DNA of 64,000 nucleotides. It comes from Bacteroidales bacterium (GTDB lineage Bacteria; Bacteroidota; Bacteroidia; Bacteroidales; UBA1715). Below are positions 8,758-44,952 of the stretch, piece by piece. Within the stretch, counting starts at the first letter, position 1. The number at the start of each line of letters is the position of its first letter. The translations under genes were made by a program, and so were the position numbers. Location of the stretch: the NCBI GenBank assembly GCA_045599365.1, contig JAZRVS010000185.1, positions 43,919 through 107,918 on the forward strand, read 5' to 3'. A model generated the notes under the pieces. That model was not told the DNA's origin. It did no database searches and was given only the letters and a program-made list of their open reading frames with translations.

Positions 8758-8902
8758 ATTGTAATCGTGTAAATGTTATTTAAATAAATCATTCGTTTTG
8801 TGAAAGTTTGGTAATGCGTTATCAGAATTGGCATAACAACAAACCAAACTTAAACGATTGTTTCATACAAAGTTTTCTTGAATGGGGAAAGCTATATGAA
8901 TA

Positions 8903-11109: not shown

Positions 11110-12918
11110 ATGGACCGCAGACAATTCTTAAAAATATTTGGAGCAGGAACGGCTGTAACTGCTGCTACTTTAGCTGGATGTTCAAACAAAAAAGACCAAT
11201 CAACCGAAACGGCAATTTTAGGAGAAATTCCTACCGATAAAATGACGTATCGTCCTGATACACATGGCGATAAAGTTTCTATTTTGGGTTTTGGTTGTAT
11301 GCGTTTTCCAACAATTGAAGGGAAAAGTGGTCGCGAAGATTCCGAAAACGAAATCGACCAAGAGGAAATCAATCGAATGGTTGACTATGCAATAGAACAT
11401 GGTGTAAATCTTTTCGATACATCTCCAGCCTATTGTCAAGGGCGCTCCGAAAAAGCGTTGGGAATAGCGTTGAGCCGACATAAAAGAAGTGAATATCGTG
11501 TCTCTACAAAACTTTCTAATTTTGGTGTATTCACTCGCGAAGCTTCGTTGGAAATGTATCAAAATTCTTTCAAAGAATTGCAGGTAGATTATTTAGATTA
11601 CTATTTGTTGCATTCTGTTGGTGGTGGCGAAGACGCAATGGGCTATTTCCGAGCTCGCTACATAGACAATGGTTTGCTCGATTTTTTAATAGAGGAACGT
11701 AATGCTGGCAGAATCAAAAATCTTGGCTTTTCGTATCACGGCGATGTTCGGATTTTTGATTATCTATTGTCGCGACACGATGAGATTCATTGGGATTTTG
11801 TTCTCATCCAATTGAATTATGTTGATTGGAATCATGCAAAAGATTCAAACCCAAATAACACAAATTCAGACTATTTGTACAACGAATTGGACAAACGCGC
11901 TATACCGATTTTTGTAATGGAACCATTGTTGGGTGGACGTTTGGCTAATTTGAGCGACCATGCAGTTGAATTGCTGAAAGAGCAAAATCCGCAAGCAAGT
12001 ATTGCCTCATGGGCTTTCCGATTCGCAGGTTCAAAACCACGAATTTTGACGGTTTTGAGCGGAATGACGTATATGGAACATTTGCAGGACAATATTCGTA
12101 CGTATGCGCCTCTCAAGCCATTGGACGAAAGTGAATATCAGTTACTTGACGAGATTGCAAAAATCTATGTCAATTTTCCGATGATTCCTTGCAATAGTTG
12201 TCAATATTGTATGCCGTGTCCGTATGGCTTGGATATTCCAGGAATTTTCAATCACTACAACAAATGTTTGAACGAAGGAACTATACAGGAAAATAGACAG
12301 AGCAAAGATTATCAAAAAGCGCGAAAAGCTTTTTTGGTCGGCTACGATAGAAGTGTGCCAAAATTGCGACAAGCAAATCATTGCGTTGGATGTAACAAAT
12401 GTCTTTCTCCTTGCCCACAACGAATCAATATTCCTGCCGAAATGCGAAGAATTGACGCATACGTGGAAAATCTCAAACAAAATGGTGCTGACCTTGGTTC
12501 AGCAGCGGTTCTTGCTATGTTGATTCGTAAACTCGACGAAGGTAATTTTTCGTGTGTGATTCATAAAAATGGCGAAACACGAACATTTTCGCAGCGTGGC
12601 GTAAAAGATTTACACGAATTGAATAAAAACAACGATTCATTTTTGAAAGATTCTCGCATTGCCGACAAGGTTATTGGTAAAGGTGCTGCAGCATTGATTG
12701 TACTTGGTGGCGCAAAAGAAGTCCGTACGCACGTGATTTGTACATCGGCAAAAGAATTATTGCAACAAAATGGAATTCAAGTAGTTTTTGACGAGGAAGT
12801 TGATCATATAATCAATAATTCAAAAACCGACTGGTGTCCATTGGAAAAACTTGTAAAAGATTGCAAAACAGCCGACGAGTGTTGGCCGATTATAGAGAAG
12901 TTCGTAGAGAAGAATTAA
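11110..12918 (+). CDS. Tat-exported lipoprotein: aldo/keto reductase fused to a 4Fe-4S dicluster domain and a DUF1893-like C-terminus
   Basis: N-terminus MDRRQFLKIFGAGTAVTAATLAGC has a twin-arginine RRxFLK motif plus a lipobox Cys. AKR-like core (FDTSPAYCQGRSEKALG...). Ferredoxin motifs CNSCQYCMPCP and CVGCNKCLSPCP. C-terminal segment resembles DUF1893. Confidence 0.8.
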   Translation: MDRRQFLKIFGAGTAVTAATLAGCSNKKDQSTETAILGEIPTDKMTYRPDTHGDKVSILGFGCMRFPTIEGKSGREDSENEIDQEEINRMVDYAIEHGVNLFDTSPAYCQGRSEKALGIALSRHKRSEYRVSTKLSNFGVFTREASLEMYQNSFKELQVDYLDYYLLHSVGGGEDAMGYFRARYIDNGLLDFLIEERNAGRIKNLGFSYHGDVRIFDYLLSRHDEIHWDFVLIQLNYVDWNHAKDSNPNNTNSDYLYNELDKRAIPIFVMEPLLGGRLANLSDHAVELLKEQNPQASIASWAFRFAGSKPRILTVLSGMTYMEHLQDNIRTYAPLKPLDESEYQLLDEIAKIYVNFPMIPCNSCQYCMPCPYGLDIPGIFNHYNKCLNEGTIQENRQSKDYQKARKAFLVGYDRSVPKLRQANHCVGCNKCLSPCPQRINIPAEMRRIDAYVENLKQNGADLGSAAVLAMLIRKLDEGNFSCVIHKNGETRTFSQRGVKDLHELNKNNDSFLKDSRIADKVIGKGAAALIVLGGAKEVRTHVICTSAKELLQQNGIQVVFDEEVDHIINNSKTDWCPLEKLVKDCKTADECWPIIEKFVEKN

Positions 12919-13083
12919 GAGATAAGAAATAAGAGTTAAGAGAGAAGAATTAAGAGTTAAGAATTAGGAGTTAAGAATTAGGAGTTAAGAATTAAGAGTT
13001 AAGAATTAGGAGTTAAGAGATAAGAATTAAGAGAGAAGAATTATTAATTGATAACTTAAAACTGACAACTAAAAACTAAAATT
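12919..13083. repeat. Period-7/14 tandem array (GAGTTAAGAATTAR)n that runs into a (CTnAnAA)n heptamer array immediately before tatA
   Basis: Read directly: gagttaagaattaa/gagttaagaattag units repeat about 6 times, then ttgataa cttaaaa ctgacaa ctaaaaa ctaaaat. TAA/TAG stops occur in all three plus-strand frames. Confidence 0.85.
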
Positions 13084-14071: not shown

Positions 14072-14113
14072 CTACTGAAAACTTTTATCAAAATACGTAA
14101 AAGTTTTCAGTAG
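14072..14113. repeat. 42-bp palindromic hairpin, copy 1 (possible bidirectional terminator between tatC and the ATPase gene)
   Basis: ctactgaaaactttt-atcaaaatacgt-aaaagttttcagtag: a perfect 15-bp stem. Identical to 15342-15383. Confidence 0.8.
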
Positions 14114-14119
14114 AGAATT

Positions 14120-15298
14120 TTATAGTTCATCTATTTGTAAAAATTCCTTCAAAGTAGTATGACGTACCGCGCTTGTTGAATAATCAATATCATCATTGGT
14201 AATCAATATTTTTTGATTTCTATTGTCAATTTTGTCAAATGCTGAAAATTCACGAGAATAAGCCTTTTCATCAGCCACACTATATGCGACTTGTACGAAA
14301 TAGGTTTTATTATCCTTTTGAGCCATAAAATCTATTTCCTTTTCGCTGTTATATACTTGCAAAGTATAACCGCGATACAATAATTCGTTATACACGATAT
14401 TTTCTAAGTTGTGAGTTACATCATATCGATTAGAATTACAACGTAAACTATTGAACGCCACATCTGCATTGTATATCTTTTTGTAAAAGGCAAGTTCTTG
14501 TTTGGTTTTGGTAGAATATTGACCGATGCTTTCAATAATAAATGCTTCTTCCAAATACGACAGGTAGCTCATAATTGTATAAATTGAGCAATTTGAGTGG
14601 GCATTTTTTATATAATCATAGATTGATTTTGCCGAATAAATGCGTGAATTTGATAGCAATACAAAATTAACCAAGTGTCGAAACAAATCGCTTTTTCTAA
14701 TTTTATATCGATTTATTATATCATTAGAAACAATTGTGTTATCCAAATCGCTCAAATATTGAATTTGTGCGTCAAGAGTATCAAACTCGAAACGCTTCGG
14801 AAAACCGCCCCACACCAAATAATCGCTTATGCTTGGCGTTTTTCTCAGTTGCTGACAATATTCACAGATTTCCTTGTACACGAATGGACGTATTCGAATG
14901 GAGACATAACGTCCACTCAATTCCTTCACAAATTCGCCCGACAATAGTTTTGAATTTGAACCCGTAATAAATACAGAATTGTTGTGTAAACGTAAAGTTT
15001 TACAGGCATCTTGCCAACCTTGTAGTGTTTGTATTTCATCAAAAAACAAATAGCATTTGCCATTTGTTCTATGCGAGTCAACATAATGTAACAAATCGTT
15101 GGCATTTTGAATCATCATAGATGTGCGTACATCTTCAAAATTCAGATAAATCACGTTATCTGTCTTTTGCTTTATCTCGTCCATTATCTGACTAAATATC
15201 ACCGACTTACCACAACGTCGAATGCCAGTTATTACCTTAATCAAATCCGAGTCGTAAAATGGACGAACTTTCGCTACGTAATGCTCTCTTTGAATCAT
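14120..15298 (-). CDS. AAA+ ATPase of the AAA_14/DUF4143 family
   Basis: MIQREHYVAKVRPFYDSDLIKVITGIRRCGKSV... with Walker A GIRRCGKS. Length and layout are typical of DUF4143 ATPases. The start at 15298 is chosen because the upstream ORF-track extension runs into the hairpin repeat. Confidence 0.8.
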   Translation of the reverse strand: MIQREHYVAKVRPFYDSDLIKVITGIRRCGKSVIFSQIMDEIKQKTDNVIYLNFEDVRTSMMIQNANDLLHYVDSHRTNGKCYLFFDEIQTLQGWQDACKTLRLHNNSVFITGSNSKLLSGEFVKELSGRYVSIRIRPFVYKEICEYCQQLRKTPSISDYLVWGGFPKRFEFDTLDAQIQYLSDLDNTIVSNDIINRYKIRKSDLFRHLVNFVLLSNSRIYSAKSIYDYIKNAHSNCSIYTIMSYLSYLEEAFIIESIGQYSTKTKQELAFYKKIYNADVAFNSLRCNSNRYDVTHNLENIVYNELLYRGYTLQVYNSEKEIDFMAQKDNKTYFVQVAYSVADEKAYSREFSAFDKIDNRNQKILITNDDIDYSTSAVRHTTLKEFLQIDEL

Positions 15299-15341
15299 AT
15301 CTACTGAAAACTTTTTACAAAAATAACAAAAGGTTTCAATA

Positions 15342-15383
15342 CTACTGAAAACTTTTATCAAAATACGTAAAAGTTTTCAGTAG
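15342..15383. repeat. 42-bp palindromic hairpin, copy 2 (identical to 14072-14113)
   Basis: Exact 42/42 match read directly. A partial third copy (ctactgaaaactttttac) lies at 15301-15318. Confidence 0.8.
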
Positions 15384-15426
15384 AATTTGGAATAATAGAA
15401 AATTGACAGTCTCAATTTAACTTTAT

Positions 15427-26670: not shown

Positions 26671-26786
26671 GAACAATATACAATTTGGCAGCACAATCAT
26701 TTATAATCAACTATCAGTAGTTAGTATTCAGTTTGATTTCCAAAATGGTAATTGATTACACAAAGAGATTCATCTAACAACTATAT
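26671..26786 (+). repeat. Dispersed structured intergenic element, copy B
   Basis: gaacaatatacaatttggcagcacaatcatttataatcaactatcagtagttagtattcagtttgatttccaaaatggtaattgattacacaaagagattcatctaacaact. Confidence 0.7.
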
Positions 26787-26998: not shown

Positions 26999-28408
26999 AT
27001 GGAAGATAATAAGATTGTTGGTCGTCGTCGCGAGTGTTCTATTTTATCTCGTTTGCTGAAATCTACCGAGTCTGAGTTCATCGTTGTGTATGGTCGTCGC
27101 CGAGTAGGAAAGACTTTTTTCATAAATCGCTATTTTAATGACGATTTTGCTTTTAAGTTGACTGGGCTTGCTGAAAAGAATAAAGAAATGCAGTTGCAAA
27201 ATTTTGCAGATGCTTTGATTCGTTTTACAAAAACACAATTTTCAGTTCCAAAAACATGGTTCGAGGCTTTTAATCAGCTGCGGAATATGTTAGAGAATAA
27301 AAAGTCCGACAAAAAGAAGGTCGTTTTTATTGACGAATTGTCGTTTATGGATACTCCTCGTAGTGGGCTGATTACAGCATTAGAACATTTTTGGAATGAT
27401 TGGGCTAGTTCTCGTAATGACATTGTCCTTATTATTTGCTGTTCTGCAACATCGTGGATATCTAATAAAATTTTGAAAAACCATGGCGGTTTGCACAATC
27501 GTGTTACTTGTCGGTTATATATAAAACCTTTTACCTTGGCTGAAACGAAGGAGTATATTAGACATAAGGGTCTTCAAATGGAAGAGAAAGAAATTGCTGA
27601 ATGCTATATGATTATGGGTGGTATTCCGTATTATCTCAAACATTTACAAAAAGGTAAGAGTCTTGCTCAAAATATTGATTCAATTTTCTTTAGACGTAAG
27701 GAAGGCCTTGATGGTGAGTTTGAAAATTTATATGCATCGTTGTTCAAAAATTCAGAGAATTATGTAAAGGTAATAGAAGCATTGAGCAGTAAAAATAAAG
27801 GTCTAACCCGAAAGGAATTGTTGGAAAAAACGAATTTGATAGATAATGGACATTTTGCTCAAATTCTTTCTGACTTAGACGATTGCGATTTTATTCGTAA
27901 ATATAGAGGATATGGAAAAAATGAACGACAAAGCCTTTACCAGTTAACGGATTTTTATTCTTTTTTCTATTTTAAATACATAAAAAAATATAAGTCGGCG
28001 GATAAAGATTTTTGGATACACCAAATAAATACTCCTTCTTATAATGCGTGGGCTGGATATGCGTTTGAACAATTATGTCTGTATCATCATTCTCGAATAG
28101 AAAATACATTGGGAATTTCGGGAATTCAAACGGAAATTTTTGCTTGGAATGGACAACATGCTCAAATAGACCTTGTTATAAAACGTGCTGATAAGGTCAT
28201 TAATGTATGCGAAATAAAGTTTTGTGAATCAGAATTTGTAATTACAAAAAAATATCGTGACGAAATAGTAAACAAAATAAATGCTTTTCGTAGAGAGAAT
28301 AAAATTCGGTGGGCAATTCATTTGGTTATGATTACCGCTAATGGACTATACCCAACAGAATATACTTCATTGGTACAAAACGAGGTGTTTTTGTCTGATT
28401 TATTTTAA
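26999..28408 (+). CDS. AAA ATPase of the archaeal-ATPase/DUF234 type
   Basis: ...GRRRECSILSRLLKSTESEFIVVYGRRRVGKTFFINRYF (Walker A GRRRVGKT), Walker B VVFIDEL. 469 aa with the family-typical C-terminal domain. Confidence 0.75.
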   Translation: MEDNKIVGRRRECSILSRLLKSTESEFIVVYGRRRVGKTFFINRYFNDDFAFKLTGLAEKNKEMQLQNFADALIRFTKTQFSVPKTWFEAFNQLRNMLENKKSDKKKVVFIDELSFMDTPRSGLITALEHFWNDWASSRNDIVLIICCSATSWISNKILKNHGGLHNRVTCRLYIKPFTLAETKEYIRHKGLQMEEKEIAECYMIMGGIPYYLKHLQKGKSLAQNIDSIFFRRKEGLDGEFENLYASLFKNSENYVKVIEALSSKNKGLTRKELLEKTNLIDNGHFAQILSDLDDCDFIRKYRGYGKNERQSLYQLTDFYSFFYFKYIKKYKSADKDFWIHQINTPSYNAWAGYAFEQLCLYHHSRIENTLGISGIQTEIFAWNGQHAQIDLVIKRADKVINVCEIKFCESEFVITKKYRDEIVNKINAFRRENKIRWAIHLVMITANGLYPTEYTSLVQNEVFLSDLF

Positions 28409-28533
28409 GAAAACAATATACAATTTGGCAACAAAATCACTTGTAATCAGGTGTCAGTAGTCAGTTTATTTCCATAATGGTAAATTGATTACACAAAGAG
28501 TTTCGTCTAACAACTGATAACTGACAACTAAAT
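28409..28533 (+). repeat. Dispersed structured intergenic element, copy C
   Basis: gaaaacaatatacaatttggcaacaaaatcacttgtaatcaggtgtcagtagtcagtttatttccataatggtaaattgattacacaaagagtttcgtctaacaactgataactgacaactaaat. Confidence 0.75.
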
Positions 28534-31038: not shown

Positions 31039-32481
31039 TTATCCTACACTCCCTTCCATAGAAAGAGCTATCAATTTGTGAGCTTCTACGGCAAATTCCA
31101 TAGGTAAATGGGTCAGCACTTCTTTTGCAAAACCATTTACAATTAGGCTCATTGCACTTTCTGTAGATATTCCTCGTTGGTTACAATAGAAAATTTGTTC
31201 GTCAGCAATTTTTGATGTCGTTGCTTCGTGTTCTACGGTTGCTGTATTGTTTTGAATATCTATCACAGGAAATGTGTGTGCTCCACATTTTGAGCCAATA
31301 AGGAGGGAATCACATTGCGAAAAATTGTGGGCATTTTCAGCGGATTTACTCATTTTTACTAAACCACGATATGAGTTATTGCTCTGACCAAGAGAAATAC
31401 CTTTGGAGATAATGGTACTTTTGGTGTTTTTCCCAATATGTATCATTTTTGTTCCTGTGTCGGCTTGCTGATGATTACGGGTAACGGCAACAGAATAAAA
31501 TTCTGACACAGAATTATCTCCTTTCAAGATGGTACTTGGGTATTTCCACGTAATAGCAGACCCAGTCTCTACTTGTGTCCACGAAATTTTTGAATTGTTT
31601 CCCTTGCAAAGTCCACGTTTTGTTACAAAATTGTAAATACCACCATTCCCATCTTTGTCCCCAGCATACCAATTTTGTACTGTAGAGTATTTTATTTCGG
31701 AATTTTCGTGTGCAACCAATTCTACAACGGCAGCGTGAAGTTGATTTTCGTCACGCATTGGAGCGGTGCAGCCTTCAAGATAACTTACGTATGCATCATC
31801 GTCAGCAACTATTAGTGTACGCTCAAATTGTCCTGTTTTAGATGCATTAATACGAAAATATGTTGATAATTCCACTGGACAGCGAACGCCTTTCGGAATA
31901 TAGACAAACGAACCATCACTAAAAACTGCGGCATTTAGGGCTGCATAGTAGTTGTCGGTATAAGGGACAACGGAACCTAAATATTTTTTTACTAATTCGG
32001 GATAGGTTTTTGCTGCTTCACTAAACGAACTGAAAATGATACCTTTTGCATTTAATTGATCACGGAATTGTGTGTGTACTGACACACTATCAAAAACTGC
32101 ATCTACAGCTACACCAGAAAGCATTTTTTGTTCTTCCAAGGGAATTCCCAATTTATTGAATGTATCAATAATTTCTGGATCAACTTCGTCAAGGGACTCG
32201 TATTTTGCTTTATTTTTGGGTTGTGCATAATAACTAATTGCTTGGAAATCAGGCATGTCAAAGTGTAAATGCCCCCATGTTGGATGTTCAAGTGTAGTCC
32301 AATGTCTATATGCTTTTAAGCGAAATTCCAATAACCAATCAGGTTCTTGTTTAACGGTTGAAATACGACGTATGATGTCTTCGTTTAAACCTGGCGGGAA
32401 AATGTCGGTTTCAACATTTGAAGTAAATCCATATTTATATTCCTCGGATTCTAAATTGTCAAGGACGTCTTGGTCTGCCAT
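31039..32481 (-). CDS. sufB: Fe-S cluster assembly protein SufB
   Basis: 480 aa with clear SufB family similarity throughout (e.g. ...[22 protein letters not shown]..., ...[12 protein letters not shown]...). Confidence 0.95.
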
Positions 32482-32483
32482 TT

Positions 32484-33194
32484 CTATTCCATTAATGTTT
32501 CAAAGTCAATAGGTGTGCCAGAATTAAGTATTTCTGTGATAGTTCCATTGGAGCATTGCAACATACGAGATGGGAATTTTTCGGTCATTTGTACGTTGTG
32601 TGTAACTAAAAATATTGTACATCCCGATTTAGCAATTTCGTGGAATAGTTGAAATATTTCCTCAGATGTTTCTGGATCAAGATTTCCAGTTGGTTCATCT
32701 GCTAAGATTATTTCTGGATCGTTAAGTAATGCACGAGCAATTGCTACGCGTTGTTGTTCACCACCAGCAAGTTGTTGTATCATACTATTTTCCTTATCAG
32801 ACATGCCAACTTGCTTCAATACTTCTGAAATACGAGCTTGTATTTGTGATGCTTTAGTCCAACCTGTAGCTTTTAGTACAAACGCTAAATTTTCGTGAAC
32901 ATTTCTATCAGAAAGTAATTGAAAGTCTTGGAAAACTACAGAGACTTTTCTCCGAAGATACGGAATTTTTGAACGCTTTATTTTGTTCAAATCGTAGTCC
33001 GCAATCATTGCTTCGCCGTCAAGCAATGCTATTTCGGCATCCATTGTTTTGAGTAAACTTGATTTTCCTGCGGCTGTTTTACCAATAAGATACACCAATT
33101 CTCCTTCGGCAACAGAAAAAGACACGTTTGTCAATATTGGATTATGGTAATCGTAACCAATTGTTGCATTGTTAAAATAAATCTTGTTCGCCAT
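32484..33194 (-). CDS. ftsE: ABC ATP-binding protein, FtsE-like
   Basis: Walker [11 protein letters not shown], signature LAGGEQQR, Walker [12 protein letters not shown]. Size and layout fit FtsE. Confidence 0.75.
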
Positions 33195-36823: not shown

Positions 36824-37366
36824 ATGAGTCTCGGTTTAATTTCAAATAGACAAAAGGTAGGAGCTTTGCTCGCTTACCTCTGTGTGCGTATCCCTGATAT
36901 GCAGTTGCTGAAGATTCTTTATTTAATTGCTGAGGATTCCGTGTGTTTGCGTTCTATTCCTGTGACTTGGTTGGAGTATCAAGCATGGGAATAGGGACCT
37001 GTGGCTCATGAGGTTTATGAGGCTAAGAGTGGGGCTTTCTTTGATTACATTCAGTGCGAAAAAAAGGATGATGGCAAATGGCATGTGAATGCATTGGTGC
37101 ATCATGCGTTTCAGTTAGAGAAGGATATGCAGAAGACGAGCCAGTGGGAGAAGGAATTGATTGAGCGCATCATTGAGCGATGCAAGGACTTGTCAGCAGA
37201 TCAACTTACGGGTGAGACTCATACGTCAGACTCGCTTTGGAACAAAGTCGTAACGGAAAATAATATTGATTTTAGTCGCAATCCGAAGACTGCAATTCGT
37301 CTGTGTTTGAGTCGAGATGCGAGATTGAAAAATCGCAGTGGTTGGCACAGGCTATGTAGGTTTTAG
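36824..37366 (+). pseudogene. Panacea/DUF4065 (SocA/GepA-like antitoxin domain) gene interrupted by an in-frame TAG
   Basis: The frame starts at ATG 36824 (MSLGLISNRQKVGALLAYLCVRIPDMQLLKILYLIAEDSVCLRSIPVTWLEYQAWE), hits TAG at 36992-36994, then continues in the same frame GPVAHEVYEAK...SADQLTGETHTSDSLWNK. The stop falls exactly in the conserved aW-x-x-GPV motif. Confidence 0.65.
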
Positions 37367-37492: not shown

Positions 37493-37921
37493 ATGGCCGA
37501 AAAGACCAACGAAAATAATAACATACAATTGATTGATGGCAACAACAGCCAGATAGTCATCTACACTTCTTCCGATGGCAAGGTCAATCTTGATGTGCAG
37601 ATAGATGCCGATACTGTGTGGCTTACACAACAGCAGATAGCTCAACTCTATGGCAAGGCGGTTTCCACCATCAACGAGCATATCAAAAATATTTTGGAAG
37701 AAGAAGAGTTGAAAGAGGATGTGTGTGTAAAGAAATTCGGAATTTCCGAATTTCAGCAGAAAACCCCATTCTACTATAATCTCAGCATGATAATATCGGT
37801 TGGTTATCGTGTCCGTTCCAAGCAAGGAACACTCTTCCGCCAGTGGGCAACAAAGCGTCTTGAGGAAGCCATCATGAACGAGGAAAACGTGCCTCTTGAT
37901 TATCGTGATGATTGTGCATAA
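37493..37921 (+). pseudogene. RhuM-family protein, N-terminal ~140 aa only (C-terminally truncated)
   Basis: ...VWLTQQQIAQLYGKAVSTINEHIKNILEEEEL...FYYNLSMIISVGYRVRSKQGTLFRQWATKRLEE matches the RhuM N-terminal region. The ORF stops at the first bases of the 99-bp repeat. Confidence 0.65.
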
Positions 37922-38014
37922 ATCTTATGTGATGGTTATGTGATTAGAAGTGTTAAACATTACGTAATTGATTGAAAATCAATAATTATTTTATGTGATG
38001 GTTATGTGATTAAG
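37916..38014. repeat. 99-bp direct repeat, copy 1
   Basis: gcataaatcttatgtgatggttatgtgattagaagtgttaaacattacgtaattgattgaaaatcaataattattttatgtgatggttatgtgattaag. It contains ttatgtgatggttatgtgatta twice around a short palindrome attgattgaaaatcaat. Confidence 0.85.
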
Positions 38015-38056: not shown

Positions 38057-39508
38057 ATGAATGATAAAGAACTCCAAAATATATTAGCCGATATTCAAGC
38101 TTCTTCTAAGGAATGTGAATGGATAGAGTTAAAGCATAACAATTGGAAACCAGAACTTATCGGTGAGTATGTATCTGCTCTTTCTAATGGAGCAGCATAT
38201 ATGGGGCAATCAAAGGCTTATCTTGCTTTTGGTCTAAATGATGAAACTCATGCTATTGAAGGAACTAATTTTGACCCACAAAAATTAAAAATAGGAAATC
38301 AAGAGTTGGAAAATTGGATTGCGACTCAACTCACACCACGAATTGATTTTTCTTTTCATGAATTAATAACAAACCAGGGGCGAGTAGTAATTATAATAAT
38401 AGATTCGGCGGGAAATACCCCGGTGAAGTTTCGTGGAGAAAGTTACATTCGAGTTGGCTCATATAAGAAACCTCTTGCAGAACATCCTGAACGAGAACGA
38501 AAAATATGGCAAAATACTTTACATAGTAGTTTTGAAACAAAAATAGCAAAGGTTGGAGTGTCAGAAGATCAAGTCCTTAATTTAATAGATTATCCTACCG
38601 CATTTCGGCTTCTAAACATCCCATTGCCAGAGAATCGTACAGCAATAATTGATAAATTACAAGAGGAGCAATTTGTAGTTAAACGTCCATCTTGTTATGA
38701 TATTACTAATCTTGGAGCAATACTTTTTGCTAATAAATTGTCAGATTTTATTACTCTCAAGCGTAAGGCCGTTCGTCTTATCTTTTACAAAGAAGAAGAC
38801 CGTATAAATGCAATTCGTGAAGTGTACATTGATAAGGGATACGCAATAGGATTTGAAGGTTTGATTCAAAATATATCGGATAATCTTCCTTCTAATGAGC
38901 AAATAGGAAAGGTCTTTCGTCAAGACATACCAATCTATCCACCTTTAGCTATACGTGAATTTGTTGCGAATGCATTGATTCATCAAGATTTTTCTTTGGG
39001 AGGTTCTGCGCCAATGATAGAAATATTTAAGTGTCGTATAGAAATTACAAATCCAGGTAACCCACTTATAGATACTCTTCGGTTTATTGATCATGCTCCT
39101 CTTAGCAGAAATGAATTATTGGCATCTACAATGCGTAGAATGCGGTTTTGTGAGGAACGAGGAAGTGGTATTGATCGTGCATTAGCACAATGTGAATTGC
39201 ATCAGTTGCCAGCGCCCTCCTTTTTTAAAGATGATTTATTTACCAAGGTTACAATGTTTGCTCCAAAAACTCTTCGTCAAATGAATTCAGAAGATAAAAT
39301 AAGAGCTTGCTATCAGCATTGTTGTTTGCAGTATGTTGCTGGCAAAAAGATGACTAATGAATCTTTTCGAGATCGTTTAGGAATTGAGCCACAAAATTAC
39401 TCAACTGCATCCCGTATTATTTCGGATACTATAGATGCTAAATTTGTAAAACCTTATTCGGAGAGTCAGTCTAAGAAATACGCTCAGTATATTCCTATAT
39501 GGGCATAA
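38057..39508 (+). CDS. AlbA_2 (Schlafen-like divergent AAA) + HATPase_c_4 domain protein, 'putative DNA-binding/RecG-like transcriptional regulator' family
   Basis: N-terminus ...ECEWIELKHNNWKPELIGEYVSALSNGAAYMGQSKAYLAFGLNDETHAIEGTNF is typical of AlbA_2. The central REFVANALIHQDF... is typical of the HATPase_c_4 part. 483 aa. Confidence 0.75.
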   Translation: MNDKELQNILADIQASSKECEWIELKHNNWKPELIGEYVSALSNGAAYMGQSKAYLAFGLNDETHAIEGTNFDPQKLKIGNQELENWIATQLTPRIDFSFHELITNQGRVVIIIIDSAGNTPVKFRGESYIRVGSYKKPLAEHPERERKIWQNTLHSSFETKIAKVGVSEDQVLNLIDYPTAFRLLNIPLPENRTAIIDKLQEEQFVVKRPSCYDITNLGAILFANKLSDFITLKRKAVRLIFYKEEDRINAIREVYIDKGYAIGFEGLIQNISDNLPSNEQIGKVFRQDIPIYPPLAIREFVANALIHQDFSLGGSAPMIEIFKCRIEITNPGNPLIDTLRFIDHAPLSRNELLASTMRRMRFCEERGSGIDRALAQCELHQLPAPSFFKDDLFTKVTMFAPKTLRQMNSEDKIRACYQHCCLQYVAGKKMTNESFRDRLGIEPQNYSTASRIISDTIDAKFVKPYSESQSKKYAQYIPIWA

Positions 39509-39601
39509 ATCTTATGTGATGGTTATGTGATTAGAAGTATTAAATATTGTGTAATTAATTGAAAATCAATGATTATTTTATGTGATGGTTATGTGATTAA
39601 G
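39503..39601. repeat. 99-bp direct repeat, copy 2
   Basis: gcataaatcttatgtgatggttatgtgattagaagtattaaatattgtgtaattaattgaaaatcaatgattattttatgtgatggttatgtgattaag. A few substitutions relative to copy 1. Confidence 0.85.
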
Positions 39602-39696
39602 CAAATAAAATTCATTATTTTGTTCTATGGTAGATAACCAAGAATGACAGTTAAGCATAATGGTCAACAAAAACGAAGGAATATTTATTATATACA

Positions 39697-39786
39697 ATGA
39701 CATCGTTTGAAAATATTAAAATTGCAGTAGCTGGCACAGGCTATGTAGGTCTTAGCATCGCTACATTCATTCAAATGAAAATATAA
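39697..39786 (+). pseudogene. ugd: Fossil 5' fragment of UDP-glucose 6-dehydrogenase, copy 2 (29 codons)
   Basis: MTSFENIKIAVAGTGYVGLSIATFIQMKI-stop. Confidence 0.7.
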
Positions 39787-39809: not shown

Positions 39810-40025
39810 ATGAATATCAGAGATATATCACAATACATTGTGGCGCTTATAGCTGAATTTGCAAAGCGCTATCAGCTCACAGATCGACAGGCAGCTCGCT
39901 ACCTTAGCCGCTACCATGCTCTTGAAATGTGCCAAAAACACTATGGCTTCATGCACACTCAATCTTTCGAGTCCAATATCGCTGACCTTGCTGCCTATTG
40001 TCAGCGAATGGGTGGACAACTATAG
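39810..40025 (+). CDS. DUF3791-family small protein
   Basis: 71 aa. MNIRDISQYIVALIAEFAKRYQLTDRQAARYLSRYHALEMCQKHYGFMHTQSFE... matches my recollection of DUF3791. Confidence 0.65.
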   Translation: MNIRDISQYIVALIAEFAKRYQLTDRQAARYLSRYHALEMCQKHYGFMHTQSFESNIADLAAYCQRMGGQL

Positions 40026-40039
40026 TACAAATATCAACA

Positions 40040-40519
40040 ATGATACTCTATCACGGATCAAATACAAGCATTGACAACATAGACTTGACTCGATGCAACA
40101 GGTACAAAGACTTCGGACAAGCCTTCTACCTCACTACCGATCTTAAACAAGCAGAGGAGGTTGCTAAGGCAAGGACTGAATTCTTCGGAGGGGAACCAGT
40201 GATCAACACTTACGAGTTTGATGAAACACTACTTACCGATGGCTCTCTCGCCTTTCAGTCCTTCCCATCCTATACTGATGAGTGGACAGAATTCGTCTTT
40301 AATCACCGTGATGAAACCAACGTGCCACCTCACATGCATAATTTTGACATTGTCTATGGACCTATAGCCAACGATCGTGTGGGCATGCAAGTGCGAAACT
40401 ACCGTCAAGGCTACATTACACTCGAAGAATTTCGCAGAAGACTACAATACATGAAAGGCGAAACTTACCAGTATGCCTTCTGCACTACACGTGCCATATC
40501 AAAACTTCGCAAGTTATGA
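40040..40519 (+). CDS. DUF3990-family protein
   Basis: MILYHGSNTSIDNIDLTRCNRYKDFGQAFYLTTDLKQAEE... ATG at 40040 is preferred over the longer ORF-track start. Overlaps the next gene by 4 nt (ATGA). Confidence 0.7.
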   Translation: MILYHGSNTSIDNIDLTRCNRYKDFGQAFYLTTDLKQAEEVAKARTEFFGGEPVINTYEFDETLLTDGSLAFQSFPSYTDEWTEFVFNHRDETNVPPHMHNFDIVYGPIANDRVGMQVRNYRQGYITLEEFRRRLQYMKGETYQYAFCTTRAISKLRKL

Positions 40520-40752
40520 CTATGCATATTTCACTCGAGGAGTTTCGCTTCATGATCGAAGACATTACCTCCGACCTCATACAGATGCTCATCGAGCGCG
40601 AAGGCTACACCCTTCCTCAAGCCGTGGATGCCGTTTATAATTCCGACATCTATGCTGCCTACATCCGTCCTGAAACTGCCCTCTATTACCAGTCATCTAG
40701 TTATATCTACGAGTACCTTCTCCGCGAACTCCGTACCGGCAAACTGCAGTAA
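40516..40752 (+). CDS. Second DUF3791-like small protein
   Basis: 78 aa. ...FMIEDITSDLIQMLIEREGYTLPQAVDAVYNSDIYAAYIRPETALYYQSSSYIYEYL. Translationally coupled to the DUF3990 gene. Confidence 0.6.
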   Translation: MTMHISLEEFRFMIEDITSDLIQMLIEREGYTLPQAVDAVYNSDIYAAYIRPETALYYQSSSYIYEYLLRELRTGKLQ

Positions 40753-40777
40753 AGAATATAAATACACAAAAACATAT

Positions 40778-40924
40778 ATGAACACTTCATTTCAAGATCT
40801 AAAAATCGCAGTAGCTGGTACAGGCTATGTTGGTTTGTCTATAGCAACCTTGCTTGCACAACATCATATGGAGACCCGCAAAATGAACCTTGCTGAATTC
40901 TTGGAGAAGGAGATTGTGAAATAA
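40778..40924 (+). pseudogene. ugd: Fossil 5' fragment of UDP-glucose 6-dehydrogenase, copy 3 (48 codons)
   Basis: MNTSFQDLKIAVAGTGYVGLSIATLLAQHH followed by unrelated residues and a stop. A full-length Ugd would be roughly 400 aa or more. Confidence 0.7.
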
Positions 40925-41005: not shown

Positions 41006-42202
41006 ATGAATAACAAATTAATCACAGTAACTAGTCCATTACTTCCCAATCTTGATGAGTTCCACGAGATGCTGCAGCAAATCTGGGACTCCAAGTGGAT
41101 TACCAACAACGGTCAGTTTCACAAACAACTGGAAGCTGCTCTTGCGGAGTATCTCAAGGTGCCTTACATCAGCCTCTTCACCAACGGAACCTTGCCTCTG
41201 CTTACGGCTCTTCAGGCACTTAGAATCACTGGCGAAGTAATCACTACACCTTATAGTTTTGTTGCAACGACTCATTCTATCTGGTGGAACGGATGCAAAC
41301 CAGTGTTTGTGGATATTGATCCTAAAACGGGAAATCTTGAACCAAATAAGATTGAGGCTGCCATCACTCCTCGTACCACGGCTATTATGCCTGTTCACTG
41401 CTATGGCAAACCTTGTGACGTGCGCGCCATCAAGGAAATTGCGGACAAATACGGACTGAAAGTCATCTACGATGCAGCTCACGCATTTGCTCTGGAGATT
41501 CCTAAGTATGAGACGGATTATAAAGTTGCATTCGATGAGGCAACTAATGTACTTGCTCCTTCAAAGGCGACAAAACATGTGGAAGTTGAGACTGAGTCAA
41601 TTTTGAACTGGGGTGACATCAGCACTTTGAGCTTCCATGCCACCAAGGTCTATAACACCATCGAAGGTGGTGCAATGATAATGCAAGATGCCGAAACCAA
41701 GAAACGTATCGATTACCTCAAGAACTTTGGCTTTGCAGGTGAGACTACAGTCATTGGTCCTGGTATCAATAGCAAGGTGGATGAGATGCGTGCAGCATAT
41801 GGTCTTCTTAACTTGAAGCAGGTGGATCAGGCAATTGCCAATCGCCAGAAGGTGGCTAATGCCTATCGTGAAGCTCTTAGAGGCATAGAAGGAATCACCT
41901 TCTTCGAGGACATGCCTGGAGTCAAGCACAACTACAGTTACTTCCCTATGTTCATCGATGCAGAGAAATACGGCACAACCCGTGACGAGCTGTACTTCAA
42001 GATGAAAGAGGCGAATGTCCTTGGCAGGCGTTATTTCTATCCTCTTATATCTGAGTTCTCTACTTACAGAGGATTAGAAAGTGCGAATCCTGCGAACTTG
42101 CCTAACGCTCGCAAGATGGCAGATAGTGTAATTTGTCTGCCTATGCATCATGAGCTTTCAGATAACGACATAGAACGTACTCTCGCATTCTTAAAAAAAT
42201 AA
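41006..42202 (+). CDS. DegT/DnrJ/EryC1/StrS-family sugar aminotransferase
   Basis: ...FHKQLEAALAEYLKVPYISLFTNGTLPL..., DAAHAF, SFHATKVYNTIEGGAMI (PLP-lysine region), ...VICLPMHHELS. Carries ~25 extra residues between the DAAH and SFH motifs. Confidence 0.85.
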   Translation: MNNKLITVTSPLLPNLDEFHEMLQQIWDSKWITNNGQFHKQLEAALAEYLKVPYISLFTNGTLPLLTALQALRITGEVITTPYSFVATTHSIWWNGCKPVFVDIDPKTGNLEPNKIEAAITPRTTAIMPVHCYGKPCDVRAIKEIADKYGLKVIYDAAHAFALEIPKYETDYKVAFDEATNVLAPSKATKHVEVETESILNWGDISTLSFHATKVYNTIEGGAMIMQDAETKKRIDYLKNFGFAGETTVIGPGINSKVDEMRAAYGLLNLKQVDQAIANRQKVANAYREALRGIEGITFFEDMPGVKHNYSYFPMFIDAEKYGTTRDELYFKMKEANVLGRRYFYPLISEFSTYRGLESANPANLPNARKMADSVICLPMHHELSDNDIERTLAFLKK

Positions 42203-42220
42203 ATCATAGAACATTAAAGT

Positions 42221-43381
42221 ATGCAAAAGTTTATAGTAAAAAATCTTGGTCCAATACAAAATACGAGTATTGACATAGGCGATTTGACCATCCTCATAGG
42301 AACACAGGCCAGTGGCAAGAGCCTCCTCCTTCAGATGTTTAAGCTTGCCAAGGATCGTAAGTCCATAATGAAACGTCTGGATAATTATGGCTTTATTGTT
42401 AAATCCAATGCTGACAATCTTTTGAACAGATATCTGGGCGATGGTCTGGCTACCATGTGGCAAGACGACACCGAAATAAACGATAATGGCAATCATTATA
42501 CATCAAAGGAATCGCTTATTAAGAATCCGACAAACAGCATTGTCGATAAAGTCTTCTATGTACCGGCACAACGCATCCTTAGCATAGCAGACGGTAGGCC
42601 CAAAAATTTCATGGAATTTGGTGAGAGCGATCCCTATGTTCTGCGTTCCTTCAGCGAAACGCTACGATTGTTTGCGCATGGAGGCATGGGGGGAAGTAAT
42701 GTAATCTATCCACTCAAGAATCGACTGAAGGGTTCTGTTAAGAAGATGTTCAATGAGACAATCTTTCACGATGGTAAGGTTGTAATGGAAGAAATAGCCG
42801 GTCAACGAAAGATAGCCATGGATATCAATGGAATGCGGTTGCCTCTTATGACATGGAGTGCAGGACAAAAGGAGTTTTTGCCATTGCTTATGGCATTCTA
42901 TTGTCTCTCCGGACCTGTTCAAAATGTTATCAACCCACGGCAATATGAATATGTCATCATAGAGGAACCGGAAATGGGCTTACACCCACTCGCTATTCAG
43001 ACTATCATTCTTGAGATTATAGAACTTATTCACAATGGCTACAAGGTAATTGTCAGTACGCATTCACCAGTTCTTCTCGAGTTTGCCTGGGTACTGAGTG
43101 CCCTCAGAGGAATACTGGCCTCAAAGCGCCTTGATGCTCTTTCTGAACTTTTCCGTCTTTCACCACATAGCAATACCAAGGAGATATTAACTGATATCTA
43201 CGAAAAGAATGTCAAAACATATTACTTTTCACGAAAGGAAGACAAAGTCGTATCTACCGATATCTCATCACTTGATGTTATGAGCGACAATGTTGATATT
43301 ACCGAATGGGGTGGATTGACACAGTTTTCTACATTAGCAAATGATGTTGTTTCAAAATATATAGCTAAATATGGCGAATAA
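42221..43381 (+). CDS. ABC-type (AAA_21/AAA_15-like) ATPase, stand-alone, defence-associated class
   Basis: Walker A GTQASGKS, ABC-signature-like WSAGQKE, Walker B YVIIEEPEMGLHP, H-loop VSTHSP. 386 aa with no TM or transporter partner. Confidence 0.8.
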   Translation: MQKFIVKNLGPIQNTSIDIGDLTILIGTQASGKSLLLQMFKLAKDRKSIMKRLDNYGFIVKSNADNLLNRYLGDGLATMWQDDTEINDNGNHYTSKESLIKNPTNSIVDKVFYVPAQRILSIADGRPKNFMEFGESDPYVLRSFSETLRLFAHGGMGGSNVIYPLKNRLKGSVKKMFNETIFHDGKVVMEEIAGQRKIAMDINGMRLPLMTWSAGQKEFLPLLMAFYCLSGPVQNVINPRQYEYVIIEEPEMGLHPLAIQTIILEIIELIHNGYKVIVSTHSPVLLEFAWVLSALRGILASKRLDALSELFRLSPHSNTKEILTDIYEKNVKTYYFSRKEDKVVSTDISSLDVMSDNVDITEWGGLTQFSTLANDVVSKYIAKYGE

Positions 43382-43835
43382 CAAGAAATCTGCATTTCAA
43401 GAAGCAGTAGAAAACACACCTGAAGTGAAGGCTGGATATTGTAGCGGATTAAAGGCAGTAAAGGGTTCCGACCGTTCCAAGATTGTTTCTTCCAAAACCC
43501 TTCTTATTAACGGTAGTCTTGACATAGACTCGTGTGTAAAGGGAATCTATCCAAAGGAAAACAGATGGGATTATGCTATATCCTATAACGATGAAATCAC
43601 CTTTCTTGAGATTCACCCTGCATACGACAAGGAAATCGTGGTCCTGCAGAGAAAGTTGAGTTGGCTGAAGGCATGGCTAAAGTCAAAAGCTCCTCTCATC
43701 AATGCTCTTCCCATGTCTGATAAGCCCTTCTGTTGGGTACCTTCTGGCGAGAATGGATTTTTATCTACATCCGTTTCAAGAAAGAAGATAGCCTTGTTGG
43801 GAATATCCTACGAGAACCGACTGATATTAAGATAG
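43371..43835 (+). CDS. Hypothetical 154-aa protein, translationally coupled partner of the ATPase
   Basis: Its start overlaps the ATPase stop by 11 nt (aaatATGgcgaaTAA). I recognise no family. Possible nuclease-like D...D...ExH spacing (LDIDSC / RWDYAI / FLEIHPA). Confidence 0.55.
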   Translation: MANNKKSAFQEAVENTPEVKAGYCSGLKAVKGSDRSKIVSSKTLLINGSLDIDSCVKGIYPKENRWDYAISYNDEITFLEIHPAYDKEIVVLQRKLSWLKAWLKSKAPLINALPMSDKPFCWVPSGENGFLSTSVSRKKIALLGISYENRLILR

Positions 43836-43846
43836 TAAAAAATAAA

Positions 43847-44026
43847 ATGAATGTGCTCAATAACCCACTCACCTCAGAGTTCTCGACCTACAGAGGATTA
43901 GATTCAGCAAAACCTGAGAATCTCCCGAATGCTCACAAGATGGCGGATAGCGTTATCTGCTTGCCTATGCATCATGAGCTTTCACAGGAAGACATAGAGC
44001 GGATACTGAATTTGATACTTAAGTAA
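43847..44026 (+). pseudogene. Duplicated 3' end of a degT-type aminotransferase gene
   Basis: MNVLNNPLTSEFSTYRGLDSAKPENLPNAHKMADSVICLPMHHELSQEDIERILNLILK parallels the C-terminus of the intact gene (NVLGRRYFYPLISEFSTYRGLESANPANLPNARKMADSVICLPMHHELSDNDIERTLAFLKK, ~42014-42202). Confidence 0.8.
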
Positions 44027-44052
44027 AATGTGAATAAATAAAACTGAATAAA

Positions 44053-44952
44053 ATGAACAAGAACATGCAAGAAACAAGAGATTTCCTCAAGAGCATTGGA
44101 ATGCCAGAAGGAGATCTTTATTCACTTCCTACTTCAGAGAAGCGTTTCCCTGATGGTGGTCAGTACCGCTTCGAGGTTCCTGGAATTCAGGGTCCTGGCC
44201 CTATGAAGGCACTCTTGGAACAACTTGATGAGTATGGCATCCAGATTCATCGCGTAACACAAACAAAGGGTATCATGTTCCTTACCGATGAAGAAATCAA
44301 GCAGATGGTGGCATTGGCAGAGAAGTATCACGTACAGTTGGTACTTGCTTGTGGCCCTCGTGCTACAACCGATACTTCTGCATCAGTAAAGACCGAAGAA
44401 GGCCAGCGTATGGGTTATCGTCTTCGTGGTCAGGAACAGATAGTTCGTGGATTTGAAGAAATCAGACGTGGAGCTCGCCTCGGTGTTCGTGGATTCCTTA
44501 TTTATGATGAGGGTTTGCTTTATGCTCTTAATGAAGCGCGCAAGTCCGGCTTCATACCGGCAGACTGCCACTTCAAGATTTCTGCTCATTCAGGTCACGG
44601 AAATCCGTGTTCCGCCCATGTGCTTGAGTCATTGGGTGCCAACAGCATCAACCCTATTCGCGACATCCAGATTCAGATGCTTGCCGCAATGCGTGCCGCT
44701 ATTGACGTGCCTATCGATCTGCATACCGAGAATCCTAAATCCAGTGGTGGTTTTATCCGTCACTACGAGGTTCCGGAGTTTGTACGTGTAGCTGCTCCTG
44801 TCTATCTGAAGACCGGTGGATCTGTTGCTGCTAATCACAGTTATGATACCACTGAGAAGGAGGCAAAGCAGAGGGCAAAGCAGATTCTGCTGGTAAAGAG
44901 AGTGCTGGACGAGTATTATCCTGATGCAGTTGTGTCTCCAAAATTAAAGTAA
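44053..44952 (+). CDS. Hypothetical enzyme-like protein (family not recognised; alternating pattern suggests a barrel-type fold)
   Basis: 299-aa ORF tightly packed with the downstream genes. No motif I can name. Confidence 0.5.
   Translation: MNKNMQETRDFLKSIGMPEGDLYSLPTSEKRFPDGGQYRFEVPGIQGPGPMKALLEQLDEYGIQIHRVTQTKGIMFLTDEEIKQMVALAEKYHVQLVLACGPRATTDTSASVKTEEGQRMGYRLRGQEQIVRGFEEIRRGARLGVRGFLIYDEGLLYALNEARKSGFIPADCHFKISAHSGHGNPCSAHVLESLGANSINPIRDIQIQMLAAMRAAIDVPIDLHTENPKSSGGFIRHYEVPEFVRVAAPVYLKTGGSVAANHSYDTTEKEAKQRAKQILLVKRVLDEYYPDAVVSPKLK

Follow-up and report, generated by a model that had tools for sequence, protein, structure and literature searches.

The question raised by this locus is whether two overlapping genes, lodged behind an aminotransferase gene in a polysaccharide gene cluster, constitute a phage defence system and, if so, whether that system is a new one. 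The genes, here called A and B, lie in a stretch of 64,000 nucleotides (nt) from a Bacteroidales bacterium (assembly GCA_045599365.1, contig JAZRVS010000185.1, positions 43,919 to 107,918 of the forward strand; henceforth the window). The first-pass annotation of the window had described them as an ATPase gene and a gene of 154 codons that overlap by 11 nt, and the list of open reading frames (ORFs) and the raw sequence indeed gave frames for proteins of 386 and 154 residues (aa) that share 11 nt on the + strand. The stop codon of the upstream degT gene is found 18 nt ahead of the start of A, and a long + strand operon for glycan biosynthesis follows the pair. Because of the Pfam matches of A, the PADLOC matches of both proteins and the many homologous clusters that were found, A and B are to be regarded as genuine genes and not as chance ORFs. 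The original recognition of an ATPase plus a nuclease-like partner concerned a real, intact and well-conserved two-gene module. Overall, however, the module is a catalogued candidate within a known architectural theme and not a discovery.

The models of the PADLOC entry PDC-M56 match both proteins from end to end, the order (A>>B) and the shared strand agree as well, and by these profile matches the locus is an intact member of that catalogued candidate. More specifically, residues 1-382 of A align with positions 1-379 of the 382 positions of PDC-M56A (PADLOC-DB v2.0.0; expectation value (E) 1.4e-153, 509 bits), whereas the second-best PADLOC family reached 75 bits, and residues 4-151 of B align with positions 3-148 of the 151 positions of PDC-M56B (E 7.4e-47), which was the sole PADLOC match of B. 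The prefix PDC abbreviates 'phage defence candidate' (Payne et al., bioRxiv 10.1101/2024.01.29.577857). The 145 candidates of this kind were derived from genes that lie within BREX, DISARM and type I restriction-modification (RM) systems and are explicitly 'untested' in PADLOC; PDC-M56 itself was nominated via guilt-by-embedding, its cassette occurring inside systems of these kinds (bioRxiv 10.1101/2024.01.29.577857). Table S8 of that preprint lists it as CAS_00181, FAM_00005>>FAM_02395, next to the number 47 (apparently that of its instances) and the entry 'Assign as candidate PDC-M56', and the ATPase family FAM_00005 is present also in a cassette assigned to the HEC-01 model. The main text of the preprint holds no phenotype, fold or mechanism for PDC-M56, and a literature search for PDC-M56 and PDC-M found no paper text that mentions PDC-M56 and no follow-up work. 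Thus the claim that the system is undescribed fails, and the small protein does match the effector of a named system, though that name denotes a computational candidate. In fact, the word 'undescribed' is wrong where cataloguing is concerned and right for phenotype, fold and mechanism. New in the present analysis are the assignment of a fold and an active site to B, the obligate pairing across about eight phyla, the size of the family, the nearest solved folds to A and the target-duplication brackets around the pair.

A had been taken for a stand-alone ATPase of the ABC/OLD type, the class used by PARIS, Septu and Gabija, and the Pfam, PADLOC and structure searches all agreed with this. The protein matches AAA_21 (8e-19) and AAA_15 (1.2e-18) in Pfam and has 2256 homologous clusters at E <= 1e-20. 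Its remaining PADLOC matches are all defence-type ABC ATPases (NsnB, AriA, HEC-01A, Old, PDC-M29A, PD-T4-4_A, GajA, PtuA and AbiLi). The four catalytic motifs that had been quoted are all present, GTQASGKS at residue 27, WSAGQKE at 212, YVIIEEPEMGLHP at 244 and STHSP at 279, and the residues of these motifs that are invariant in 37 homologues are given in Table 1. The Q-loop (PAQR at residue 115) is invariant in the same homologues, and the usual Asp of the Walker B motif is a Glu instead. An AlphaFold2 model based on the 37 homologues (predicted score in the local distance difference test (pLDDT) 86, predicted template-modelling score (pTM) 0.90) has the ABC head fold and lacks a long coiled coil, its longest helix spanning about 18 residues. 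No membrane partner was found among the window neighbours of A, so that the early observation that A has neither a membrane partner nor a long coiled-coil insert was borne out on both counts. A structure search with the model retrieved 194 matches in PDB at E <= 1e-3, with PtuA and Rad50 at the top. The nearest solved folds are those of PtuA, in Septu and retron I-A complexes, and of the Rad50 heads (E ~3e-8 to 1e-6, template-modelling (TM) score ~0.40-0.45). The matches of A to PDB sequences were marginal, with a PtuA-type ATPase as the best (5e-4), and all NCBIfam models that were matched (MAD3, retron Eco8, PtuA and transporters) stayed far under their cut-offs. Residues 111-144, after the Q-loop, form an invariant stretch in the family. 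The loop ADGRPKN (residues 123-129, positions 42587-42607) is almost invariant and is the sole segment that the AlphaFold model leaves unplaced (pLDDT below 50); it may represent a partner-binding or sensing surface.

The genomic surroundings could suggest that A is in fact a transporter-type ABC ATPase, or an accessory of the glycan locus. The pair lies within a cluster of polysaccharide genes and on their strand, a homologue of A carries the name 'EcfA2' in one source, and the clade of the window (A 72-91% identical) recurs at or in glycan loci in 5 of 6 distinct contexts, a further contig, L075, being too short to judge. However, the transporter families matched A at E ~1e-4 or weaker and with less than 21 bits against cut-offs above 200, a membrane partner is missing, an insertion scar brackets the pair, and outside the window clade the pair occurs in unrelated contexts. 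We give this explanation next to no credence.

The nature of B is a different matter, as no credible family was found for it in Pfam, NCBIfam or PHROGs (a PHROG match to HNH, at E 0.16, did not rise above noise). A scan of 130 diverse members of the B family at E <= 1 showed no recurrent Pfam family, and a B profile retrieved only chance matches among the PDB sequences. An exhaustive profile search delimited a family of 1171 clusters at 50% identity (E <= 1e-3), and at this threshold B belongs to a large family that is without a Pfam model and is newly recognised in this analysis. The protein is basic, with an isoelectric point of 9.3. Among 138 representatives, each at most 50% identical to one another, D67, E80, H82 and K95 are 100% conserved, S49 and W66 99%, and G48, D53, R65 and A84 93-94%. 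In the AlphaFold2 model of B (pLDDT 92.6, pTM 0.88), D67 caps the strand 68-72, E80-x-H82 ends the strand 75-81 and K95 resides in the helix 88-105. The order of the secondary structure elements, as seen only in this predicted model, fits an alpha-beta-beta-beta-alpha-beta core, in which D67 and E80-x-H82 sit at the canonical place of the PD and (D/E)xK motifs on the beta2-beta3 hairpin.

A Foldseek search with this model returned almost exclusively PD-(D/E)xK nucleases among the top matches in PDB (E 0.02-0.8) and BFVD. The PDB list is headed by the nuclease domains of Cdn1, Card1 and Can2 (probability 0.87-0.94, about 87 aligned columns), followed by VC1899, FokI, N.BspD6I, Hjc, Bax1 and the cap-snatching endonucleases of bunyaviruses and arenaviruses; the BFVD matches include VRR-NUC, Mrr, restriction endonucleases and RecU. 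On the basis of these top matches and of the placement of the invariant residues, B is probably a metal-dependent nuclease or phosphodiesterase of the restriction-endonuclease fold, an assignment that is structural and weak. The restriction-endonuclease-like fold had been suspected from a D...D...ExH spacing, and the predicted fold and the invariant acidic, His and Lys residues agree with it. The spacing itself stood in part: GSLDIDSC is found at residue 48 and RWDYAISYNDEITFLEIHPA at residue 65, but D51 is only 69% conserved and the invariant set consists of D67, E80, H82 and K95. The scans of Pfam, PADLOC and NCBIfam agreed that B is not of the HNH, TOPRIM/DUF4435 or RloB type. One protein of 389 aa (P0106) joins an A-like N-terminal half, with the Walker A region, to a B domain (residues 233-383). 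It was considered as an informative A-B fusion and rejected, being taken by eye for the product of a deletion or frameshift.

The distribution of the pair was determined with two conserved peptide patterns in one genome per species (185,579 species), a method that yields a lower bound. Relatives of B were detected in at least 61 loci, in the Bacteroidota (many Bacteroidales, Saprospiraceae and Taibaiella), Ignavibacteria, Cyanobacteria (Pseudanabaena), Campylobacterales, Acidobacteria, Armatimonadota, Planctomycetes and Firmicutes. A homologue of A is located directly upstream of B in all 59 loci in which this could be judged, covering about eight phyla, the other two being cut at a contig end. 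Of 54 loci, 38 have overlapping ORFs, and in 13 more the two lie at most 10 nt apart. Moreover, the similarity of A and B to the window proteins covaries across the loci (Spearman 0.42 on bit scores, p = 0.003), and no third gene is conserved beyond genus level in these genome loci. The proposal of a translationally coupled pair is in line with the mostly overlapping ORFs, and the two genes were kept as neighbours across phyla. The pair is thus obligate and has a patchy distribution. A metagenome scan with B yielded distant relatives only, on short contigs that say nothing about the link with degT.

This distribution bears on the idea that the pair serves DNA repair or recombination in a housekeeping-like manner, with a Rad50/SbcC/RecF-type ABC ATPase and its cognate nuclease. 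Rad50 heads are among the structural matches of A, and B resembles the folds of structure-specific nucleases and resolvases such as Hjc and RecU. Nevertheless, 61 loci in 185,579 species, even as a lower bound, constitute a sporadic occurrence, the neighbourhoods are variable and the locus carries insertion scars. A is without a coiled coil, moreover, and has defence ATPases for all of its best profile matches. We consider a role in repair most improbable.

A search by tblastn of 72,556 PLSDB plasmids and 50,697 INPHARED phages retrieved no relative of B, and neither did a pattern scan of IMG/VR. The plasmid result is of direct relevance to another explanation, namely that of an addiction module similar to a toxin-antitoxin system, in which A, as an ATP-dependent antidote or regulator, would keep the toxic nuclease B in check, and the cassette would persist because its loss kills the cell and not because phages are blocked. 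The tight coupling of two genes, with a small, basic and enzyme-like partner, would fit such a module, as would the Pfam label of AAA_21 ('putative AbiEii toxin, type IV TA system', in which TA stands for toxin-antitoxin), the position of one relative (L064) beside a ParA-like partition gene and the persistence of the cassette in contexts unrelated to defence. However, an addiction module would sit uneasily with the absence of relatives from the plasmids, and in order and size the genes correspond to ATPase-effector pairs of defence systems. Toxin-antitoxin and abortive-infection systems are not sharply divided, moreover, and an addiction module overlaps with the defence reading that we favour below. 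All in all, we regard it as unlikely, if worth keeping in mind.

The genomic context was assessed from the 207 proteins whose genes are at most two places away from the pair in the 61 genome loci. Seven of the 207 are other AAA_21/AAA_15 ATPases. The recurrent Pfam neighbours are aminotransferases, LysR regulators, GT2 (four times), Poly_export, Wzz and GNVR (three times each) and two HsdM proteins; we tentatively attribute the aminotransferases and LysR regulators to a block that is conserved beside the pair in Pseudanabaena. PADLOC recognised AbiLi (4), PDC-M29A (4), HEC-01A (3), PDC-M38A (2) and type I methyltransferases (2-3) among the neighbours. The large proteins that flank the pair in three loci (L045, L052 and L009) had no PADLOC match, and these loci are therefore not BREX or RM embeddings. 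The association with defence islands is modest and the neighbourhoods are variable. This fits the remark of Payne et al. that candidates derived from embedding associate less with other systems (bioRxiv 10.1101/2024.01.29.577857). The enrichment near defence genes that had been anticipated is accordingly weak in the 61 loci, but the upstream neighbours in the window do match other PADLOC candidates (Table 1).

A comparison with characterised systems places the pair within a recurring design. Among the validated systems HEC-02 comes closest in architecture, as a two-gene combination of an ABC ATPase and a nuclease of the PD-(D/E)xK superfamily. HEC-02, with its NERD nuclease, protects against phages and needs both genes to do so (bioRxiv 10.1101/2024.01.29.577857). 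B differs from its nuclease in that Pfam and PADLOC found neither a NERD nor a HEC-02B match, in being half-sized and in having ExH instead of (D/E/Q)xK, and HEC-02A is not among the 25 best PADLOC matches listed for A. PARIS joins AriA, an ABC ATPase, to AriB, a TOPRIM nuclease (PMC11464382). It shares with the pair a stand-alone ABC ATPase of similar size and, as predicted for B, a nuclease effector, and its AriA profiles match A at 2.8e-21 and 3.7e-19. These matches are partial, however, and lie some 430 bits below that of PDC-M56A, and B shows no DUF4435, TOPRIM or AriB match. Septu and the PtuAB of type I-A retrons combine an ATPase with a small nuclease as well, and of the solved folds that of PtuA lies nearest to A (E ~3e-8), but the PtuB HNH partner is missing, the TM score is only ~0.40-0.45 and the NCBIfam model for PtuA gives 28 bits against a cut-off of 500. 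Gabija, with a TOPRIM domain fused in GajA and the helicase GajB, does not fit, as the 386 residues of A include no TOPRIM domain, GajA matches only the Walker B region and no helicase gene is adjacent.

Menshen consists of NsnA (ParB/DUF262), NsnB and NsnC (inPIN plus nuclease) (PMC12065111). Its NsnB is an ABC ATPase without a coiled coil, and the NsnB profile aligns with residues 3-363 of A (2.6e-21). However, the Walker B, Q and signature motifs of NsnB are degenerate whereas A keeps the catalytic set, and the neighbours of the pair are degT and glycan genes and not NsnA and NsnC. For B, the PD-(D/E)xK nuclease domains of Card1, Can2 and Cdn1 are the best structural matches, but at E 0.02-0.04 and 12-15% identity, with B lacking a CARF domain and having His in the place of Lys. 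The spacing from D67 to E80 is presumably similar to that in Card1.

We favour, with somewhat more confidence than doubt, the reading that A and B form an ATPase-controlled nuclease system for defence or abortive infection. The computations show to which family the pair belongs, that its two genes are obligate partners with intact motifs, which folds they resemble, that the pair is patchily distributed across phyla and that the locus carries insertion scars. PARIS and Septu serve as mechanistic templates, and it is by analogy with these two and with HEC-02 that a complex, its trigger, a substrate and a defence phenotype are proposed. In such a system A would oligomerise via the ATP sandwich of its ABC head and hold B inactive in a complex. 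A phage-derived cue, or the ATP or DNA state, would then change A, upon which B would be released or activated and would cut nucleic acid via the invariant D67/E80/H82/K95 site. The cutting would halt the replication of the phage, and the cell would probably pay a price for it.

Several findings weigh against this reading. PDC-M56 is a purely computational nomination that has no tested member and is not mentioned in the paper texts searched. B is without a sequence link to any nuclease family in the Pfam and PDB profile searches; none of its structural matches reached E <= 1e-3, the best being 0.02 in PDB and 0.003 in BFVD with TM scores of ~0.3-0.4; and the third catalytic position is His and not the Lys of (D/E)xK. 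Relatives of B were absent from the plasmid, phage and IMG/VR searches, and most of the immediate neighbours in the 61 genomes are ordinary genes, and several large flanking proteins had no PADLOC match. Finally, the pair is situated inside a glycan-biosynthesis operon and shows no promoter signal of its own. Indeed, scans for sigma-70 promoters and terminators gave chance levels only, and the TAnnTTTG motif of Bacteroidetes was overall no more frequent than expected by chance, with zero + strand sites in 41262-44938.

If PDC-M56 does work as a defence system, it would add another type of effector to the nucleases controlled by ABC ATPases in PARIS, Septu, Gabija and HEC-02. The effector would then be a compact nuclease-like protein of 17 kDa with an unusual D/E/H/K site. 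Residues K33 (Walker A) and E248/E249 (Walker B) of A and D67, E80, H82 and K95 of B offer themselves as targets.

The flanks of the pair bear on the way in which it entered the locus. It had been proposed that duplicated degT 3' ends flank a discrete insertion, and this was borne out, with the addition that the two copies have diverged (77% identity; Table 1). At the protein level the duplication comprises approximately the last 55 codons, and of the two copies the upstream one alone belongs to an intact degT. The GC content of the module is no different from that of its flanks. The same layout, degT - A - B - degT remnant, recurs in three related contigs (L074, L062 and L076). The junction in L074, of which A is 91% identical, is that of the window, with a decaying remnant that starts from degT residue ~346. 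L062 and L076 share a second junction, in which the remnant starts from residue ~374 directly after the stop of B, and in L062 34 of the 36 nt of the remnant are identical to the contig's own degT. In none of the 61 genome loci is degT nearby. Because the layout recurs in related contigs and degT is near none of the 61 loci, the link with degT is specific to the window clade, and the insertion is old and not a recent event in this genome.

Other relatives are bracketed by other sequences. In L063 the bracket consists of 93 nt from the 5' part of the downstream GT2 glycosyltransferase gene (76% identical; ~1063-1155 and 2919-3011). In L024 an element of 93 nt is present three times (2945-3037, 4831-4923 and 6661-6753; 97% and 80% identical, ~1.85 kb apart) and contains a terminator hairpin and a promoter-like TAAATTTG motif. 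The three elements separate a pair of a 385-aa AAA_21 ATPase and a 175-aa protein from A-B, in an array-like arrangement beside the capsule genes Poly_export and Wzz. Shorter brackets surround A-B in L018, L020, L034 and L075. Among the genome loci 3 of 52 have A-B bracketed, versus 1.5% of 619 control intervals, an enrichment that is suggestive only.

These brackets could be read as the trace of a selfish mobile cassette, whose ATPase and nuclease drive their own insertion (cf. TnsA/TnsC and recombination-promoting nucleases) and leave a long target duplication behind. A-B indeed stands alone between direct repeats of a local target at several unrelated sites: the degT 3' end in the window, L074, L062 and L076 with two types of junction, the GT2 5' end in L063 and the 93-mer in L024, with the further brackets of the other four contigs, while just 1.5% of the control intervals show the like and no recombinase gene is found inside the repeats. 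However, the 3 of 52 in the GTDB loci alone amount to a weak enrichment, conserved element ends were not seen, and the degT cases may derive from one or two old events. Moreover, like repeats flank unrelated genes of the window, i.e. the SLFN gene, the DUF3990 cassette and the genes at 14120 and 26999. We deem self-driven insertion very unlikely. A simple target-site duplication or transposon origin of the degT repeat was rejected, given its 137-160 nt at 77% identity and the lack of a transposase, and so was an integron-like origin, as the repeats are fragments of local genes and do not resemble attC sites.

Single genes between direct repeats in fact seem to be common in this genome (Table 1). 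The ugd-like 5' end, in its three copies, sets the RhuM fragment and the SLFN gene apart from the DUF3791-DUF3990-78 aa cassette, and none of the copies runs into a full-length gene. As similar brackets flank unrelated genes in the window, they point to a general, recombinase-free entry of accessory cassettes into these genomes and not to an activity specific to A-B. Candidate routes are a Campbell-type single crossover of a circle that carries a fragment of the target, or homology-facilitated illegitimate recombination. The recurrent target duplications around this and adjacent cassettes may mark a route of gene insertion into the glycan loci of Bacteroidota.

A bolder, joint reading would be that B founds an undescribed branch of the restriction-endonuclease fold, with a D...ExH...K site, and that A-B, like the neighbouring candidate-defence cassettes, spreads without a recombinase while duplicating 30-160 bp of its target, with a preference, among Prevotella-like bacteria, for the head of the loci that encode glycans (phage receptors). 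If true, this would tie the traffic of defence genes to the diversification of capsule loci; taken as a whole, we hold it to be decidedly doubtful.

Table 1. Positions in the window of genes A and B, their motifs, the bracketing repeats and neighbouring features
Feature	Position	Strand	Remarks
Identical 43-nt palindromic repeat	14072-14114, 15342-15384		brackets - strand gene 14120-15361
Repeat of ~110 nt	26672-26782, 28412-28515		79-85% identical; brackets gene 26999-28408
Two-gene unit	31039-33194	-	236-aa protein matches C-terminal part of MADS mad3 ABC ATPase, 2.9e-27
UDP-glucose dehydrogenase-like (ugd-like) 5' end, three direct copies	37322-37363, 39690-39767, 40774-40851		73-86% identical; M..SF..KIAVAGTGYVGLS
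Truncated RhuM-family ORF	37493-37921		142 aa versus profiles of ~330 aa; PADLOC PDC-S05/PDC-S23 ~1e-42
Direct repeat of 102 nt	37913-38014, 39500-39601		93% identical; brackets SLFN gene
SLFN_AlbA_2/HATPase_c_4 gene	38057-39508		upstream of degT
Cassette of three overlapping ORFs	39810-40752		DUF3791 (71 aa), DUF3990 (173 aa), 78-aa ORF; PDC-M13B 5e-43 and PDC-M10A (DUF3990 protein)
Intact degT	41006..42202	+	DegT/DnrJ/EryC1 aminotransferase, 398 aa; Pfam PF01041 DegT_DnrJ_EryC1 1.5e-93
Direct-repeat copy 1	42041..42177	+	3' end of intact degT; 137 nt, 77% identical to 43865-44001
Gene A	42221..43381	+	386-aa ABC-type (OLD/AAA_15/AAA_21 class) ATPase; matches PADLOC PDC-M56A
Walker A (P-loop) GTQASGKS	42299..42322	+	A residues 27-34; G27, Q29, A30, S31, G32, K33, S34 invariant in 37 homologues
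ABC signature-like WSAGQKE	42854..42874	+	A residues 212-218; W212, S213, G215, Q216, K217, E218 invariant in 37 homologues
Walker B / D-loop YVIIEEPE	42950..42973	+	A residues 244-251; E248, E249, P250, E251 invariant in 37 homologues
H-loop STHSP	43055..43069	+	A residues 279-283; S279, T280, H281, S282, P283 invariant in 37 homologues
Gene B	43371..43835	+	154 aa; matches PADLOC PDC-M56B; predicted PD-(D/E)xK-like fold
Putative catalytic core of B	43515..43655	+	S49, D53 ... R65-W66-D67 ... E80-x-H82 ... K95; conservation in 138 representatives
Direct-repeat copy 2	43865..44026	+	orphan degT 3'-end remnant; ~last 55 codons, frame open, own stop

With regard to the other genes of the window, the RhuM-family ORF is probably the remnant of a gene. 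In the related contigs L065 and L066, too, a DUF3990 gene is found upstream of A-B. The 236-aa mad3-like protein weakly matches HEC-02A and AriA, and the protein of 480 aa encoded after it had no PADLOC match; the unit may be another ATPase-based cassette or a fragment thereof. An Rfam scan of the whole window gave no match. At the start of the window, an ORF of at least 2925 aa on the - strand (1-8775) runs off the edge; its internal repeats, at a spacing of 3084 nt, hint at a multi-modular gene of the synthetase type. Finally, tandem units of 7/14 nt (TTAAGAG/AAGAATT-like, 9 or more register copies) are found in 12866-13068, at and just beyond the 3' end of a 602-aa ORF (11110-12918).

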